From: Mayamaea pseudoterrestris
Taxonomy: Eukaryota
Assembly: GCA_027923505.1 (NCBI GenBank)
Contig: BROI01000012.1
Coordinates: forward strand, 62,001-126,000
Direction of reading: 5' to 3'
Length of the DNA: 64,000 bases
The notes beneath the pieces are model-generated. The model saw nothing but the letters and a program-made list of their open reading frames with translations, was not told the origin of the DNA and made no database searches. This document shows positions 3,605 through 45,470 of the stretch, in pieces; the first letter of the stretch is position 1; the number at the start of each line of letters is the position of its first letter. A program made the translations under genes and the position numbers.

Positions 3605-6600
3605 GTGAACAACACTAGCCGTGGCTCAGCGATGCGAAGTTTCTTAGGTCCAGACCAGCCCACGACTACGACTCGGGGAGCAAATATTGCTCAGAGTCGC
3701 AAGTACAAAGTCGCGAGCATTGACTTGGATAAGCATTCAGCGTCGACTGTCGATCGCGGCGCGAGTGGCGGAGTATGGGGAGCGGACGGCCGCATCCTTA
3801 CCGAGGACAAGTTCCACAAGATTGAAGTCACTGGAGTCGGTGGTCTCAAACTTCCGGACCTGTCTACCGTCACAGCAGTCGCCAAGCTTAAGAGCACCAA
3901 GGGTTGGGTCGTCGGCGAGTTCCATAATTACGCATATTCTGGAACCGGCAAGACGATTCATTCGAGTATGCAGATGGAAGCCTTCGGACTTCATGTCAAC
4001 GACAAGCATTACAACTTTGGTGGCAAGTTACGAATCGAAACGCCAGATGGATACAAGTTTATGCTCGGGATGGAAAGTGGCATGGCGACCTTGCCAATGT
4101 TTCCAGTGTCGGCGCATGAGCTTCACACCTTACCTCGGGTCATGATGACCTTCGATGGACCTTGGGATCCGAATGAGTTTGACGTCGAGCCGACCGAGGA
4201 CGACGACTATGACTCTTCGGATGACGATGACGACGAGGACGACGTACCGGACTTGTTGTCGCGCGACGAAGACGACGAAGACAGTGACGACGAAGAGGGC
4301 TTCACGCGCGTGACACGTTCGCGTACGCGGAATCGCACTCATCGTCAAAGCAACGTGACATATACGAATCTCGGACACGACAATCAACCTGTTTACACCG
4401 AGAAGGAGCTGAATGTTTGTGCCGTCGTACAGAAGTACAATGCGGATCTCGTCTATCAGCCCTACAAGTCTATCCTGCCAAAGAAACCTGATATCGACGC
4501 ATTGCTGCCGAACTTTGCATGGTACCCGGCGCAGACGATCAAGGATACTTTGCGCCACAGCACGCAGTTCAACATGCACGAGCGCCGATACCCCCCACGA
4601 ATGCATCGAAAGAGCCGATTCCTGAACGTCTACCGTCTAGATGATCGAGTGGCCCATGACACCATGTTCTTCGACGAACCAGCCATGGATGATCATATCG
4701 ACGGACATGCAGGGTGCACATGCGTGCAGCTATTCTATGGCTGTCGCAGTCAGATCATTGTAGTGTATCCCATGCGGACGAAAGGCGACGTACCGAAACG
4801 ATTCCGTGATTTCATCCGCGAGTTTGGAGCTCCGTTGGAAGTCTTCTCGGATAATGCGAAAGAAGCAATGAGTGCCAAGTTTGACAAAGTAATGCGCGAG
4901 TTCATGATTCGCCGTCGTCATACATCGGAGCCGTACTATCAGAATCAAAATCCAGCCGAGCGCATCATCGGGCACGTCAAGGAAAGTCATGAACGGCTTA
5001 TGGACCGAACAGGCACTCCGGCATGCTTCTGGCTACGCGCTTTACTCTTTCAGACCGAGATGTACCGTCATTTGTCGCATCCTGCCTTGGACGGCAAGTC
5101 TCCCATCGAGTTTATCACTGGGCAAGTCCCCGACGTGTCGAAGTATTTGCATTTTCGTTGGTTTGAAATTGTCAACTACTTTGTCAAGGATGTCGAGGCC
5201 CCGAAGACCCGCCAGCGCGCGGCGTACTGGCTTGGTCCCAACACGACGTGCGGAGACGACCTGACGTACTTCATCTGCGATTGCGAGACACACGAGATCA
5301 TGACGCGATCGGTTTGCTTACCCCAAAATGACCGCGTACCGGCACCTGCTTCCCCAGTCATGAAAGAAGGGGAGCCGCGTCTCTATACCGTACCTGGTCT
5401 AGGTGGCGAGATCCTTATGCCGGAAATGATCAAGAAGATTACCGACGCCGACAGCAGAGACGAAGATTCTTTCATTCCTGACGAAGACGATACCCCTTTG
5501 GTCGAGACGGTGGAATACCCGGAAGATGACGATATGACCGACGGGGAGCTAGATCCTAATCCTGCCGATGACGACCCTGCCGATGACGACGACAAGCCGA
5601 AGAAGAAGAACATCAATCCGTGGCGCAAACTCCCGAAGTATGCACCCGATGAACTTATCGGCAAGTCGTTTCTCATGAAGACGGACGACGGGCAAGAAGT
5701 TCGAGCGACCGTCATGAGCAAGCTGAACAATCGCGACGCCCAGAACCATCAGAACATTAAAATGATGCTGAAACTTGGTAACGGCGAAGCGGACGAAGTC
5801 ATGTCCTATGTCGAGGTTTCCGATCTCTACGAGGCCGAAGTGAACCAAGACATGGCGAATCCTGAGCGTAAATGGTTCTTCAAGGAGATTCTAGACCATC
5901 AGGGTCCGCTGACGAGCAAGTCGAAGAACTGGAAGCATTCCAAGTGGAACGTCCTTGTACAATGGGACGATGGATCCAAGACTTGGGAGCCTCTCAACGC
6001 GATGATCGAAAGCGACAAAGTATCAGTGGCAGCCTACGCGCAAAAGCATAATCTTCTTGACAAGGACGGATGGTCATCGTTGAACCGATGGGCCCGGAAC
6101 GCCAAGAAGGTTGCGCGCAAGGTGGCGACCGCCCGAATGGAGCAGCAGAAGAACGGACCGCGCTACAAGTTTGGAGTCCAAGTACCCCGAGACTGGAAGG
6201 AAGCGCGTCGTCTCCAAGAAGCTGCAGGGCACACGAAGTGGACGGATGCGGAAGGCGTGGAGCTTGCGAACCTGGACGAGTACGAGACGTTTCAAGATCT
6301 TGGTCCGAGTTCCACCACAACACCACCAACTGGTTACCAGAAGATCCGAGTCCATTTTGTGTATGATGTCAAGCACGATTTGCGGTACAAGGCACGTCTC
6401 GTTGCAGGCGGCCACATGACGAAAGACAACGACGATGCCTACTCCAGTGTTATCTCATTGAAGGCAATGCGTCTAGCTCTCGTCATTGGAGAAGCGAACG
6501 GCAAGAAGTGCATGGTCGGTGACATTGGGAATGCTTATCTCGAAGCGTTCACCAAGGAGAAGGTATACTTCGTTGGAGGCCCCGAGTTTGGGGAGCGCGA

Positions 6601-36419: not shown

Positions 36420-37399
36420 ATGCCGTCCAATCTTTCTCGTGCAATTGATCACGAACATGAAGGCGAAGAAGGCGCCATTGTGATTCGCACCACCGAAGCA
36501 AAACTCCGAGAAGCCGAGAGCAAGCTACTCGAGATTCAGAATTTCAACGAAGTCCCCAAATCATTGGGAATGATGTCGCTCGGAGCTTGCGTTTTTCAGT
36601 TCATTTCTGGATTCATCCTACTCATCATGACTGTGAGGAGCGAGGGCAACTGGAACTACTTCACCATGTATCCTTCGGCTGAACCTGGCGTGCCTGTGCC
36701 GTCACCTCGTGCCATTGGAAGCTTCAATATTCTTTGGCTGTCTCCCATTTCCATTTTGTTATCGGCACTGGATCATACCTGCAGTCTCGTCTTCCGTTCC
36801 ACATATGAATGGTACATTGCGCGGAACCAAAACCCCTTTCGATGGACCGAGTATGCGCTTTCAGCGTCCGTCATGCATTTGATGATTGCCCAGCTTGCTG
36901 GTATTACCGACGTTCACTTGCTTGTGACCATTTTTGTGTTGAAGGCCCTCGCCATGAACCTGGCCTCCTTGCACGAGGTGATTAACGCCAAGGCTCGGGC
37001 AGATGGATTGAAACAAAACTGGAGGTCCTTTTACCTTGCATGGGTGGCCCAATTGACTTGTTGGATCATTGTATTCAACTACTTTGGGGTTTCGGCCTCC
37101 CAAACTGAACAGCAAACCTTTCTCTGGGTCATTATGATCTTATGCTTCATCTTGGATAATTCGTTTGCCGTGTGCTTCTTTCTGCAGTGGACCAGGACAC
37201 CACCTTGCGATGGTAAGTTACACCTTTTGTTTATTTGTTTTCGGACTGCTGGTGATAGCTCGTAAAACTTGCTGATTCTATCTTTTTCCTCCTTGTAGAC
37301 TATGCGACGGGTGAAAAGATGTTCATCGTTTTGAGCTTTACCGCCAAGACGCTTTTGGCATGGGTTGCCTTTGGTGGGGTGGTTGCCACGACCAATTAG
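36420..37399 (+). CDS. Heliorhodopsin, copy 1 (exons 36420-37212, 37299-37399; 297 aa)
   Basis: LSALDH (TM2), NPFRWTEYALSASVM (TM3, counterion Glu), AQLAGITD. Splicing the phase-1 GTAAGT...TGTAG intron adds YATGEKMFIVLSFTAKTLLAW, containing the SxxAK retinal Lys. Confidence 0.92.
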
Positions 37400-38460
37400 A
37401 TAATACAAGCTCCAATTGTGCGCAAATTTTGGGTGCCCGTTAAAAATTTAGTGAACTTATCAAACTGAAAGTACCAGTAGTGAAATTGGCGAATGATTTT
37501 GGTTCGTGTGCGCCTCATCAACGATGAGGCAATGGACCATCTTGTCTCCACCCAATACCGGTACCAAATCCTGACTTGCCTTTCGACATGTCTATGAAGT
37601 AGTAAACAGATAGGAGTCCATGCCCTTTGGAGTGTGCCCATTTTTTAAACCTTCGTTTCTCGCTGCGCATCGGGACTCGGCGCTTAAAGGAGCAAGCCTT
37701 CGACTCGTCACCTTTGCATTACCGTTGCCTTGAGCTTGTCTATAACCTCTGAAAGAAGATGACGAGACAAAACAGTCGGCGCAGCGATATCAGACCGCTG
37801 GCATTCCGCTTCCATCGTACTTAGCACCTGCGTGCTGCGTGCGTACCCCGCGTGCTGCGTTGGACGTGGACGTCGACATTGACTACCGGTGAAGAGCTCC
37901 GCCACAACCCACATGTACATTTCTCATAGTGTCACTTCCGTGCACGCCATTATAAGATTGTGCTGGTGCGTAGCAACCTTTGTGCTCGCCCTCATCTTTC
38001 GATGCTCAAGAGTTAATGAGGAGTGACGAGCTGTCGGTGTCGAGGATCGATCGGCACGTGTGACGATTGCTTAAATCAAGTCTCTTGCCAACAAGAAAGG
38101 CAATACAAAGATGTCTCACAGAATCGGTTCGTCGCGAGGCATTTAGTTATTGCCATAATCGTCAAGACGTTTACGACTTATGCTGCGGCGCCACGAATCA
38201 ATTCTACGACTGAATGACGCAGGATACAATAGCCCATCTGGTCATTCGAAACAACATATGAGTCATTTTCGGACCTTTTTTCATCAACAGTCATCACGGC
38301 TGACACCAGCCATCAAAACCACGAGCAACGCTGGTTTTGATTTATGATACTCCTTCCATCAACCACATTCGTTGCCGTGCAATTCCCAGCGTCTTCTTCG
38401 CCCGCAACTCGTCAAAGTGCTATTGGTCTGCGCACTTCTCCGTCAATTCGATCACCTACG

Positions 38461-39422
38461 ATGCCACACAACGTCACGGAAGATTCCACCCGTGAGGGCG
38501 AAGAAGGCGCGATTGTCATCCGCACCACGGAAGCCAAGCTGCGGGAAGCCGAGTCGAGGTTGCTTGAGATCCAAAACTTCAACCATGTACCAAAGTCGTT
38601 AAGCATGATCACATTGGGTGCTTGCGTTTTTCAATACATTTCGGGCTTCATTCTTTTGATTGTCACGGTGCAAAGTGATGGGAGATGGTGGTACTACACA
38701 GAATATCCGAGCGCCGAAGGCGGCATTCCTGTCCCAAACTCGCGGCCGATCGGCAGCTTCAACATTTTGTGGTATGCGCCAATCTTCATCCTACTTTCAG
38801 CGTTAGATCATACTTGTTGTCTCATCTTTCGCCAAACCTACGATTGGTACATTGCTCGCAATCAGAATCCCTTCCGTTGGGCTGAGTACTCACTTTCTGC
38901 CTCGCTAATGCATGTCATGATTACGCAGCTCGCTGGAGTCACCGATGTGCATTTATTGGTCACTATCTTTGTGCTAAAGGCGCTTGTCATGCAGTTGGGA
39001 TCTTTGCACGAAGTGGTGAATGCCAAGGCTCGGGCGGATGGGTTGAAGCAGAATTGGAAGGCATACTACCTCTCATGGATTGCGCAAATTGTTTGTTGGG
39101 TAATCACTTTCAACTACTTTGGCGTTTCAGCTTCGCAAACTGACCAGGCATCCTTCCTTTGGGTCATTATGATCATTTGTTTCATCTTGGACAACTCATT
39201 TGCCGTGGTGTTTCATTTGCAGTGGACCAGGACGCCTCCATTTGACGGTAAGTGACAAGTGACGACTGTTTCGTCGCAATGCGGCATCTATCACTGCTCA
39301 CCTACAGTTCTTCTCGATCAGACTACGCAACCGGAGAAAAGACGTTTATCATCTTGAGCTTTACTGCCAAGACGCTGCTGGCGTGGGTTGCGTACGGAGG
39401 CATCGTTGCAACAACCAAATGA
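38461..39422 (+). CDS. Heliorhodopsin, copy 2 (exons 38461-39247, 39322-39422; 295 aa)
   Basis: NPFRWAEYSLSASLM; same intron position as copy 1; exon 2 YATGEKTFIILSFTAKTLLAW. Confidence 0.92.
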
Positions 39423-39538: not shown

Positions 39539-40580
39539 CTACGCGCACTCGTACGCGGCGCGCGACCAATTCCAAGCGCAGCTTCCAGACCTGCATTCCG
39601 TGCCCACCGAGCACTGCGCGTTCTTTGCAAACCCCTTTGTCGGAACAGAAGATCCATTGGCTCCAAGAGCCTTCAAGACCGCAACGTACAAGTCGCTAAA
39701 GTGCGCGGCAATGTTCCAAGGATACTTGTTCACATGCGTATTGAGTCCAACATAGTCCACTCCGGTCATGTCTCCACTCGAAACCACAATCTCGTGTCCG
39801 TAAAACGTTCCAGATCCACCAATCATCGGAACTGGATCGTACTGCAGCCGAAACGGTCCAGGCATTGCGAGAATGAAGCGAAACCACTTCCTGGCACGTA
39901 CCCGACAGTTGCTGCCAAGCACGCTTGGTTGCCCAAACGTAATGACGTATGGCGAGTAGCCTTGTGATTCAAACATGACTCCAGCGGCGTTTGCAATCGC
40001 ACCTCCTTGACTGTGGCCAGTGATGAGGAGCTTGCAGTTGGGGCAACTCGACATGCAGCGCTTGACGTCATTTTCCAAATCGGTCCGAAACATGGCATTG
40101 TAGGCATTGTATATTCCCTCCGTGACGGTGCACTTTCCAAGCAGCGACACCTGATCCTGTTGCAAGTTTGTATCATAGTCTTGCTGCCAAGTGGGCAGCG
40201 AAACGTCCGTCGATGTTCCTCGGAAGGCCATGATGCAAGTGTCGCCGACGCGAGCTGCCACGGCAACGTCTGGCTCTGTAACGAAGAACGACAAGGCCGA
40301 TGAGAAGCACAACAAAAAGTAATCGTTCTTTAACTGCAATATCGTTTCACGTACCATTCACGTAGAGACCCGATCGGCTAGAACCGGCAACCGGATTCCG
40401 AGCGGCAAAGTCCTTGGCGGCAGTCGTACTGTATGTCACGGCGGACACTTGTGAAGCAAGAACCGTCATGTCCATCACCTTTCTCGTCAATTTCTTCAAT
40501 TGCGCATGAGAGCATTGCACTCCAAAGATGGCAATCAAGGCCAAAAGAAGCGAAGTTGATGCATGGAGGTGTCGTTGCAT
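39539..40580 (-). CDS. Secreted class 3 lipase (exons 40580-40355, 40275-39539)
   Basis: Signal peptide; AFRGT, ITGHSQGGAIA, TFGQP, YDPVP, H near the C-terminus. A phase-1 GTACGT...TTACAG intron at 40354-40276 joins the ORFs. Confidence 0.9.
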
Positions 40581-42733: not shown

Positions 42734-45470
42734 ATGGCACTCTCACACGACGGCTTCCGGGCGGTCTACGAGAAAGCTCTACGCAAGGATGAGTACGTCG
42801 ACTGGAGTCCGCATACCGTTAATTATGCCGCCTTCAAGCAGACGCTGCGTCTCTTTGCCGGCCGACGATCCAAGCTACGCAATCTGCTGCGCGAGTCGAC
42901 GGATGATCGGATATCGGAGCAACAAATGAATGCAGTATTGCTTTTGCCTGAGACGGATCTGAATTCATCGCTACTATATGATACAGACTCTACTCGCATT
43001 CCTCTTGATATAACGACAAGATATGTTCCCATGTCGGATCAACAACATGACGACCATGATGAAATTGCCTCGCACGCTACCGACTCCTACTCATCATCCG
43101 GAGCGTCGCTGACCTCTGGCAAGCGCAAGAGTAAAGCCAGTGTCATGCGTCGCGTCAGCAGCTGCGAGCGAAAGGAAATGCTGCTCTTTTTGACGCGCGA
43201 GCTAGACAAGGCGCACGCCTTTTACGTGGTGCGCTGGCAAGGCTTGTCGCAGCGAATTGACGCCAAGGTAGCCTTGAAGGCTGGAACCTCAGAGCAGCTG
43301 GAGGAGCATCAAATGCTTGCATTTCCAAAGACGGATCTTGGTGACGATGTACTTGAGCTCTTTGCCTTTTGCGTCATTAATGTTTTAACCATTCGACAAG
43401 TGTTGATCCGATACGATGCCTTTGCACGAACCTTTGACGGTACACCCATGCTCAATTACTATATGAAAATGGCAATGAGACAGCCAACATCCTTTCGCAA
43501 ACTGCTCGAGCACGATGAACTTCAAGCGATTGCAGATCAATATAGCAATGACATGCACGGGTCGCCGTTGATGGGGCCGTTTGACAAGCAACGACTAGTC
43601 TTTACGGACATTTTAGTCTCATCGGAAATGGCGGAAAGCGTTGCGTCGACTGGACATGGTCGACTGACGGATACATTTATTCATACGATACGGAGCTGGT
43701 TCTTGTTGGGCGGCATTGAGGATCAGCTTGGATTTGAACCATCCTACTTGACCATGCGAGGACAGTCACTGACCAAGGAGATGGAGCAATTGGCCGAATG
43801 GAGAAAGAAGAGGCACGAGACTGTCCGGTTAACGGCTCCACCAAAAAAACTGAGCGGCATTCAAGTCTTTCACTTGACGCTCAACATGATTAGTGGCTTT
43901 CTCTATTGCATGAATTATTACATTGTGGAGCCTTCCAGTACTATGTATGTGAATCGACTGGGATCACACGATGCCATGTCTGGTACTTTGATTGGAATGA
44001 TGCCTTTGGTACGTGAAAAAAATTCAGCGAGTAAAGTTTATATTGCGACCCTGGCTGACGACGATTTTGTGACGTGTATATACAGGCCGCATTCTTTTCG
44101 AGCATTCCATATAGCATGTGGACGAACAAGTCGTTTCGACATCCGTTCCTAGTCTCGTGCATTCTCATGATTGTTGGAAATCTCATGTATAGTTTGGCTG
44201 ACAAGTACTCGAGGATTTGGGTTGCCCTGCTGGGGCGGTTCATCTGCGGGTTGGGAGCGCCAAAGTGCATTATACGTCGCTTCATGGCCGACACGACGCC
44301 AGTCGCCATGCGCACCAGCGTGAATGCAGCATTCGGCATGGTGGTTGCTGCTGGGTCAGCCATGGGGCCAGCCATGGCAGTCATGCTGAGTGGCATTGAG
44401 TATACCTACTATATGCCGCACTATGGATTCATATTTTTCAACGGTTTGACCATGCCGGGCTATCTCATGGCTGGGCTCTGGATTACATTTTCCATCATTG
44501 TGCTGTCAACGTTTGAGGAACCTGATCGAGAGGGACTGGCCGAGCAAAAGGAGATGGAGCAGCTTGGTGCTATTCCTGGCAGTCCGAGTTCTGCGACGCA
44601 TGGCATGCTCGGTTCTCGCGTCGGCGACGAGGAGACGGTTGTCAGCAATGATATGCTGGACTATGCGTCGGCATATCAGCCATCCATGAAGACTTTTGAA
44701 ACGCCGCCACAATCTCGCCTGCCGCAATGGATGCAGGATGTCAGTCATTTTGCCAGCCTCGTCACCTTTCCAGTGCGAATATGTCTATTCTTACTGCTCT
44801 GCAAGGTATTTACGATTGAGTCGCTTGTGAGTGCAACGTCGGTGCTTTCGAAGAATCGATACAAGTGGAAGGTGAAGCAAGTTGGAACGCTTGGCTTTGC
44901 TAATGGCATGATGGTTATTCCGTTTTCCATCATGGTCGGTCGACTTTCCATGTCCTATCAGGACCAAACGCTGATGAAGATGTTAGTCGGCATGGGATGT
45001 ATTGGTCTCTTCCTCCTCATTGACATCTCGGATCTAATGGGCACGCCAACAAATGATTACAATCAGGGAGACCCGCTCGCTGTTTCGCCAACGCGATTCA
45101 TCTCAGGCTACTTGATTTCGTACTTGTCAATTCAGTCGTTCGAGGGAGTGATCGGGTCGACGCTCAGCAAAGTTATCCCTACAGCGCTAGCGTCTGGAAC
45201 GCTGAACTCTGGTCTATTGTACGTGCTGATGTTGCGCTGGTCGCTTAAGTCCTGTCCACCACACTTATACTCACGTCTTGCGTTTATGTCGTGTCTCGCA
45301 GGGCTACATTGGTGGATACTGGTGGCCGAGCCTGCGGAGACTTGTTTATTTCGGCCATGGGCTTTATCAGCTTGCGTCAACTGATAAACTTGCTGTTCAT
45401 ACCGGCATTTTTCATTATGCTGACTTGTCTGATTGTCATTGAGCGCTATCGCGACTTGCTATCTGTGTAA
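42734..45470 (+). CDS. SPX-MFS protein, putative vacuolar phosphate transporter (exons 42734-44008, 44086-45218, 45302-45470)
   Basis: SPX-like VNYAAFKQ and FCVINVLTIRQVLIRYD; MFS helices FLYCMNYYIVEP, LLGRFICGLG, VNAAFG..VAAGSAMGP. Two GTACGT...CAG introns restore the frame and give a C-terminus LATLVDTGGRACGD...RDLLSV. Confidence 0.88.

Follow-up and report, generated by a model that had tools for sequence, protein, structure and literature searches.

Two heliorhodopsin (HeR) genes lie in tandem on the forward strand of a 64,000-nucleotide stretch of Mayamaea pseudoterrestris DNA (contig BROI01000012.1, positions 62,001 to 126,000; hereafter the window), at 36420-37399 and 38461-39422. Each gene contains one intron, and both introns interrupt the same codon upstream of the codon for the retinal-binding lysine. 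The parts of the two genes are as follows.

36420..37212, + strand, gene 1 exon 1: N-terminal segment and transmembrane helices (TM) 1-6; gene product of 297 amino acids (database protein P0003)
37213..37298, + strand, gene 1 intron: 86 nucleotides, GT..AG, phase 1
37299..37399, + strand, gene 1 exon 2: TM7, with Glu270, Ser277 and the retinal Lys281 (codon 37346-37348)
38461..39247, + strand, gene 2 exon 1; gene product of 295 amino acids (database protein P0004)
39248..39321, + strand, gene 2 intron: 74 nucleotides, GT..AG, at the same codon position as the gene 1 intron
39322..39422, + strand, gene 2 exon 2: TM7, with the retinal Lys279 (codon 39369-39371)

The original prediction, made from the letters of the window, was of two tandem heliorhodopsin genes that share an intron and carry the retinal Lys in a small second exon missed by the open reading frame (ORF) track. 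This arrangement was borne out by the Pfam search and structural model described below and by full-length database proteins: P0003 and P0004 (MPSEU_000617600 and MPSEU_000617700 of M. pseudoterrestris) are the spliced products, whereas the ORF list ends short of TM7 for both genes. The possibility that the introns are not spliced was checked in contigs from four public runs, all of one study, for which the run type is not on record and which carry no expression level. The gene 1 intron was skipped exactly in contigs of two of the four runs and the gene 2 intron in three. The three runs with splice joints covered the gene bodies and left most intergenic bins empty; the fourth covered all 30 bins and contained no joint. 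The spliced products are identical in 232 of 297 columns (78%), and the upstream, intron and downstream DNA of the two genes had nothing in common beyond chance-level matches.

An intron in the same place, after residue 264, was also observed in five of 12 metagenome loci (L008, L011, L012, L013, and L016) that encode an acidic residue at position 206, a position considered below. Many database homologues (e.g., P0005, P0006, P0009, and P0011) stop at the intron site without TM7, which is the pattern that intron read-through would give. Because the intron truncates many entries, the clade may be undercounted in surveys that accept only proteins with the TM7 Lys and all seven helices (as in PMC9601134).

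Exon 1 alone matched the Pfam family Heliorhodopsin (PF18761) with E values of 6e-40 (gene 1) and 3e-42 (gene 2), or 137 and 145 bits against a curated cut-off of 26.7. The AlphaFold2 model of copy 1 had a mean predicted local distance difference test (pLDDT) value of 93.4, seven helices and a two-strand first loop (strands 77-85 and 94-103), and its ten best Foldseek matches in the PDB were all HeRs. A search of the ESM Atlas with the whole protein returned only HeR clusters. No fused HeR forms of 595-2000 amino acids were detected at E 0.001, which is weak evidence that there are none. The seven-helix fold and the beta-hairpin first loop are those of 48C12 (PDB 6SU3) and TaHeR (PDB 6IS6), at a TM-score of 0.70-0.74 by query. 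The single TM3 counterion (Glu144) and the SxxxK of TM7 (Ser277 and Lys281) align to Glu107, Ser237 and Lys241 of 48C12, and the equivalents of His80 (the TM2 His, His119 here), Arg104, Glu149, Gln216, Glu230 and the Asp127/Tyr179 dimer contact are retained. The motifs quoted in the original prediction (TM1 Gln, TM2 His, TM3 Glu, TM4 Lys, TM6 Asp, and retinal Lys) were all present. Homology and the hydrophilic N-terminus predict a cytoplasmic N-terminus, that is, inverted topology, for both proteins; a rough count of the charged residues presumed to lie inside (12 Lys/Arg, 15 Asp/Glu) is uninformative on topology. Binding of all-trans retinal, with a slow photocycle and a long O state, is also predicted for the pair.

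Residues were given 48C12 numbers from ungapped alignment blocks in TM3, TM4, TM6 and TM7. In copy 1, Glu144, His153, Lys175, Ala178 and Ala182 correspond to Glu107, Ile116, Asn138, Met141 and Gly145 of 48C12, and Trp208, Gln211, Cys242, Asp246, Ser277 and Lys281 correspond to Cys166, Gly169, Leu202, Phe206, Ser237 and Lys241. The TM5 positions before 172 are less sure because Pro172 forms a bulge in 48C12. A gapped HMMER alignment of TM4 to TaHeR and to Cv06, the HeR of Chromera velia, was dropped because Asp127 and Glu149 share one ungapped offset to 48C12. The substitutions relative to 48C12 are His23Gln, Asn16Ser, Gln26Ser, Ile116His, Asn138Lys, Met141Ala/Val, Cys166Trp, Gly169Gln, Pro172Cys and Phe206Asp. 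The pocket positions, with their equivalents in bacteriorhodopsin (BR), are located as follows.

36597..36599, + strand: Gln60 at 48C12 His23 (TM1), clade-wide
36876..36878, + strand: His153 at 48C12 Ile116 (TM3), Arg, His or Lys across the clade, putative partner of Asp246; His151 in gene 2 (38911-38913)
36942..36944, + strand: Lys175 at 48C12 Asn138 (BR Asp115; TM4), lineage-specific; Lys173 in gene 2 (38977-38979)
36951..36965, + strand: Ala178 and Ala182 at 48C12 Met141 and Gly145 (BR Met118 and Gly122); Val176 and Gly180 in gene 2 (38986-39000)
37050..37052, + strand: Gln211 at 48C12 Gly169, the fenestration glycine, with Trp208 at Cys166 nearby
37155..37157, + strand: Asp246 at 48C12 Phe206 (BR Trp182; TM6); Asp244 in gene 2 (39190-39192)

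A search with a single canonical HeR gave 397 genome loci, of which the best 80 served as the prokaryotic reference; this set is biased to actinobacterial relatives. His23, Met141, Gly145, Gly169, Pro172 and Phe206 were each present in 80/80 of these loci, as was Ile or Val at 116, and Asn138 was present in 79/80. Among the 35 first homologues of the pair, Gln23 and Asp206 each occurred in 29 and Lys138 occurred in four. By these comparisons the odd residues of the pair are real, unusual relative to prokaryotes and mostly not special to the pair. The original prediction had named their being ordinary among algal heliorhodopsins as a point that would count against it, and this proved partly so: the TM1 Gln and the TM6 Asp are ordinary, but the TM4 Lys is lineage-specific.

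Named carriers of Asp206 are Phaeodactylum (P0231), Amphora (P0222), Chaetoceros (P0241), Epithemia (P0042), and the glaucophyte Cyanophora (P0076). Since most homologue rows carry no taxon, calling the Asp206 group algal depends on these few named rows, on viral contigs (an acid at 206 in 0/7 loci) and on one motif scan of prokaryote genomes for the His116 type, in which a single pattern gave three matches and no HeRs. Two HeRs from viral contigs (L001 and L002) have the canonical pocket type and basic N-terminal extensions of about 100 residues.

Phe206 is described as highly conserved among HeRs (PMC7049168) and is equivalent to BR Trp182, which together with a second aromatic residue clamps the retinal chain (PMC6951262). 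The alignment of homologues comprised 174 rows, after P0001 and P0002 had been removed as exon 1 duplicates and P0062, P0087 and P0159, long phmmer matches, as repeat proteins without HeR motifs; leaving out 26 rows without TM3-TM6 coverage gave 148 rows for counting. Asp or Glu was found at 206 in 92/148 rows, and 85 of these 92 had Arg, Lys or His at 116. Basic residues at 116 were found in only four of the 56 rows without an acid at 206, and all four had Asn206. The 116-206 pair ranked second of 15,441 pairs by mutual information with average product correction (MI-APC). Other top-ranking pairs included hairpin neighbors and His166-Asn220, which corresponds to a contact known to form between subunits. 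This pattern suggests a contact between positions 116 and 206. Ser112 bonds Asn138 in 48C12 (PMC7049168) and Ile116 lies one turn from Ser112, so that sites 116, 138 and 206 are plausibly neighbors.

Six further acidic-206 rows combined Asn116 with Glu206. The small Asn116/Glu206 group (P0088, P0092, P0107, P0112, P0129, and P0173) has Phe instead of His23 in four of its six members.

The TM4 Lys has a much narrower distribution than the TM6 Asp. The original prediction had suggested a Lys-Asp pair, but Lys138 occurred in only 4/174 rows and four cluster members, all of one lineage, and the Lys175-Asp246 pair ranked 64th in covariation, so that the pair did not hold as a rule of the group; its wider claim, that eukaryotic HeRs with a changed pocket form a group, was supported. 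His153-Lys175 ranked ninth. Lys138 together with His116 was confined to a six-row clade (support 100/98) that has His116 throughout and is nested among Arg116 rows. The simplest reading of this nesting is that Arg116 changed to His while Thr138 changed to Lys, which would keep a cation beside the Asp.

The acidic-206 rows also share changes around the fenestration: Gly169 and Pro172 each occurred in 0/92, Asn138 in 1/92 and Pro168 in 52/92. The side window near Gly169 has been tied to retinal entry and carotenoid binding (bioRxiv 2025.11.27.691015; PMC13739731). Given the missing Gly169 and Pro172, this window for retinal entry and for a carotenoid antenna is probably shut in the clade. The fenestrated "two-antenna" type is defined by an aromatic pair at 162/206, a small residue at 166 and Gly169 (bioRxiv 2025.11.27.691015); the pair has Asp206, Trp166 and Gln169.

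The pair was compared with the described HeR types. All five residues that define subfamily 1, the 48C12 type (His23, Asn138, Gly169, Pro172, and Phe206), which is also marked by a hydrophobic extracellular half, are replaced, and unlike 48C12 and TaHeR the pair has a longer cytoplasmic end of TM4, a conserved N-terminal segment and an intron. The best PDB match by sequence (E 2e-23) was the solved eukaryotic HeR Cv06 (PDB 9VFC), which is also a dimer and is without reported ion transport in the available text. Unlike the pair, Cv06 keeps His23, Asn138, Gly169, Phe206 and an open fenestration. With HeR subfamily 2 (PMC7049168) and the V2HeR3 group the pair shares the loss of Pro172, Asn138 and the fenestration glycine, but it lacks the Pro168 and the frequent Glu202 of that subfamily, and the trees contained no named subfamily 2 members. 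Three V2HeR3-like sequences (PMC9448325), read by eye, have Thr116, Glu202 and Trp206 where the pair has His, Cys and Asp. At the sites of V2HeR3 Glu191 (Leu202) and Trp195 (Phe206), copy 1 has Cys242 and Asp246. Eight other homologues (P0058, P0073, P0076 from Cyanophora, P0078, P0079, P0090, P0094, and P0096) combine Glu202, the V2HeR3 Glu191 site, with His116/Asp206 and may be better candidates for transport than the Mayamaea pair.

The Phaeodactylum tricornutum HeR (B5Y4Q4, P0231) resembles the pair in having Gln23, a basic residue at 116 (Arg), Asp206 and no Gly169, but differs in having Thr138 and in lacking the strand-helix part of the N-terminal segment. No characterization of this protein was found in the literature searched. 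The transcript of a "PtHeR", possibly the same gene, responds to blue light via aureochrome 1a (PMC7670200).

A description of an acid at Phe206/Trp182 in HeRs was not found in the available text of the literature searched, including PMC12873467, PMC8413402, PMC12558739 and PMC7807009, although figures, sequence logos and bioRxiv supplements may show it. The subfamily 2 pocket, called "extremely different" and containing His residues (PMC7049168), and the uncharacterized HeR-like clusters of PMC13739731 may each include the acidic-206 clade.

The N-terminal segment is conserved between the copies and among their relatives.

36477..36566, + strand, gene 1: conserved N segment, predicted to be cytoplasmic, residues 20-49; only 26-37 form a helix in the model
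38512..38601, + strand, gene 2: conserved N segment, residues 18-47

The copies were identical at 29 of 30 residues of this segment (binomial P 0.006 for a window chosen after the fact); the most similar windows near TM6-TM7 reached 27 of 30. The original prediction contrasted a conserved N segment with divergence elsewhere; the conservation stands, but with 78% identity overall and the windows near TM6-TM7 the divergence was overstated. Among relatives, conservation centers on residues 20-49, and the EGEEGA at the start varies. The segment was present in 25 of the 26 covering rows of a 34-row clade, and its mean column conservation was 0.75, compared with 0.85 for TM3 and 0.60 for TM1. At least 12 of 24 N-segment residues were common to 32 of 181 rows, and the segment marks a diatom clade. 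Synonymous differences between the copies were as frequent in the segment (15/29) as in the rest (108/184), and recent gene conversion is therefore no explanation for its identity; judged by these codons, the segment is under protein-level constraint. The AlphaFold2 model contains a high-confidence helix of 12 residues (26-37), too short for the coiled coil of the original prediction. This helix is outside the listed dimer contacts, although residues not listed there are uncertain, and residues 12-52 gave no usable match in the ESM Atlas. The segment is probably a short folded cap lying against the cytoplasmic face. That it docks a partner is a guess, for which N-terminal extensions of prokaryotic HeRs (PMC8612252) provide an analogy.

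Copy 1 and copy 2 each have close relatives. Five rows are of the copy 1 type (89-100% mutual identity) and three of the copy 2 type (79-86%), and 26 columns, including 178 and 182, consistently separate the types. Because both types recur in other rows with these consistent differences, the duplication, as dated by these rows, is older than the M. pseudoterrestris genome, although only the copy 1 types formed a clade (support 100/96) and the copy 2 types were not resolved as one. The BR 118/122 positions were Ala/Ala in 5/5 copy 1 types and Val/Gly in 3/3 copy 2 types. A residue other than Gly at the BR 122 site was found in 20/92 acidic rows and in 1/56 others; such residues favor a twisted 6-s-cis ring (PMC13739731). 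Copy 1 has small or Ala residues at the same two positions as the engineered 6-s-cis blue C1C2 variant T198G/G202A (PMC4479019), in which the paired changes shifted absorption from 476 to 455 nm. C1C2 belongs to a different family with the opposite topology, and an effect in HeRs would be by analogy. The Lys116 subclade (P0041, P0042, P0046, and P0060, including Epithemia), a second diatom HeR group, has Ser/Ala at BR 118/122, so pockets of the ring-twist type may have more than one origin.

The heterodimer suggested by the original prediction modelled well, with a score of 0.88 against 0.00 for the best of three controls, at least 86% shared contacts between runs and a partner pLDDT of at least 83; the contacts follow the interface already known from HeRs (first loop, TM4, and TM5), and the mixed dimer was not favored over dimers of like copies. 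No alignments were used, and the same mark was passed by 51/78 solved and 2/108 mismatched pairs (39/65 and 2/126 for eukaryotes). Interface residues were identical between the copies at 38 of 52 positions. No second HeR copy or common neighbor gene was found in 27 metagenome loci, most of them short.

The explanation we prefer, to which we give an even chance, is that both copies, as members of a wide algal HeR clade with a rebuilt retinal pocket, are slow, blue-shifted, non-transporting light sensors of two colors that are able to dimerize. The Asp at Phe206 is likely held by the basic TM3 residue at 116, whose flat side chain would fill the place of the lost aromatic ring over the retinal. 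In the Mayamaea lineage Arg116 would have become His, and it is conceivable, at slightly under even odds, that Lys at Asn138 now carries some of the charge balance. With the aromatic clamp and Met141 gone and a cation near the ring, absorption would quite probably lie at shorter wavelengths than the usual 530-556 nm, a range drawn from 13 prokaryotic HeRs with eukaryotes excluded (PMC7807009). The Ala/Ala of copy 1 may twist the retinal ring, and we lean slightly toward copy 1 being the bluer of the two. Light would isomerize the retinal on Lys281, and the proton would pass, along the route suggested for 48C12 (PMC9726877), to the cavity formed by Glu144, His119 and water; the pair lacks the His23-Gln26 branch of that route. 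With its extracellular side rebuilt, the pocket would move TM3 and TM6 differently on isomerization. Dimerization in cells through the usual TM4/TM5 and first-loop surface, perhaps with mixing of copies, is a tentative proposal. Transport by V2HeR3 is tied to Glu at the Leu202 position and Trp at 206 (PMC9448325); the pair has no equivalent of Glu191 or Trp195, so sensing is likelier than transport. In run X1, 11 of the 12 coding variants listed were synonymous, in agreement with this explanation.

Several observations weigh against it. Covariation is no proof of contact, 7/92 acidic-206 rows have no basic residue at 116, and position 206 is Asn in Seminavis P0012. Most of the acidic rows belong to a single clade (40 rows, support 100/99, with trait columns removed and only six canonical rows for comparison), and a test of 116 vs. 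206 on independent pairs had no power (four pairs, median p of 1). The ring-twist rule derives from type-1 rhodopsins. The heterodimer may have passed by likeness to solved HeR dimers, given that its interface is the known one, and the dimer model cannot separate homo- from heterodimer. Ionizable groups in a normally hydrophobic extracellular half argue for transport. A Trp that closes the fenestration glycine of TaHeR (G171W) blocks retinal uptake (PMC13739731), and pigment formation here is not assured. Spectra, photocycles or transport of any clade member were not found in the available text of the literature searched.

A more far-reaching proposal, that the widespread algal clade has swapped the near-universal aromatic clamp for a buried acid-base pair, with photochemistry unlike that of any HeR tested (far blue or ultraviolet absorption, or light-gated proton flow), and that the Mayamaea lineage has split it into two color variants whose heterodimer signals via a diatom-specific cytoplasmic cap, seems unlikely to us. 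The pair could instead be light-gated conductors of protons or small ions, with a polar extracellular path opened by His153, Lys175 and Asp246 and with Asp246 acting as Glu191 of V2HeR3 does, one turn lower. Most HeRs have no polar residues in their hydrophobic extracellular half (PMC7049168), HeR transport is known only in subfamily 2 (PMC9448325), and the clade has the subfamily 2 traits counted above; but Cys occupies the Glu191 position, Trp195 is absent, EhHeR and McHeR have Glu191 and yet do not transport (PMC9448325), and a base-paired acid would make a poor proton shuttle, so that we regard conduction as improbable. We likewise place little weight on a pocket without ordinary protonated all-trans retinal, whether with an ultraviolet-absorbing deprotonated Schiff base, with a polar retinal derivative or mostly empty. 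Five joint pocket changes (Phe206Asp, Asn138Lys, Met141Ala/Val, Cys166Trp, and Gly169Gln) would fit such a pocket, as would the G171W result and the replacement of the relay residues His23, Asn16 and Gln26 (PMC9726877) by Gln, Ser and Ser, and the Schiff base could have a reduced pKa with a Lys next to the polyene. However, the counterion Glu, Ser237 and Lys241 are kept, with Lys241 present in 12/12 acidic-206 metagenome loci and in 68 of the 78 acidic rows that extend over this site, several of the misses being mis-called intron read-through.

It is highly doubtful that the hallmark of the subfamily is a pair of TM4 Lys and TM6 Asp while a coiled-coil N-terminal signaling arm joins the copies. 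Residues 173, 174, 176 and 177 face the dimer and Lys175 does not, which fits an inward position, and the His153-Lys175 covariation and the conserved N segment would also agree; against this stand the rarity of Lys138, the short helix outside the listed interface and the Phaeodactylum protein, which lacks the helix part yet has the Asp. That these are ordinary HeRs with structurally neutral substitutions and redundant copies is scarcely probable, for although the divergent V2HeR2 and Cv06 show standard K-M-O photocycles, shifts of only 10-30 nm and no transport in the available accounts, buried charges are retained across diatoms and a glaucophyte, and the columns that split the copy types include both ring positions.

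A class 3 lipase-like gene (39539-40357, - strand) directly follows gene 2. An intron upstream in this gene (CT..AC on the + strand, about 40275-40355) was skipped in three of the four runs, with an alternative junction in two, and one contig had 23 differences in 736 bases. Two overlapping ORFs lie at 42734-45384 (+ strand), of which the second matched MFS_1 and the first had no Pfam match at E 0.01; presumably they are one SPX-MFS phosphate transporter split by an intron. A weak tblastn match to the Phaeodactylum HeR at 5707-5853 (E 0.043) is probably due to chance.

In the accounts available, the eukaryotic HeRs Cv06 and the V2HeR3 group keep an aromatic residue at the Trp182 position. An acid at 206 matched by a base in TM3 is a pocket design for which the accessible text of the literature searched gave no description. 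This pocket type is also carried by the model diatom Phaeodactylum, which makes it accessible to expression and knockout. If the two Mayamaea copies do differ in color, they would be a natural pair of color-split HeRs.

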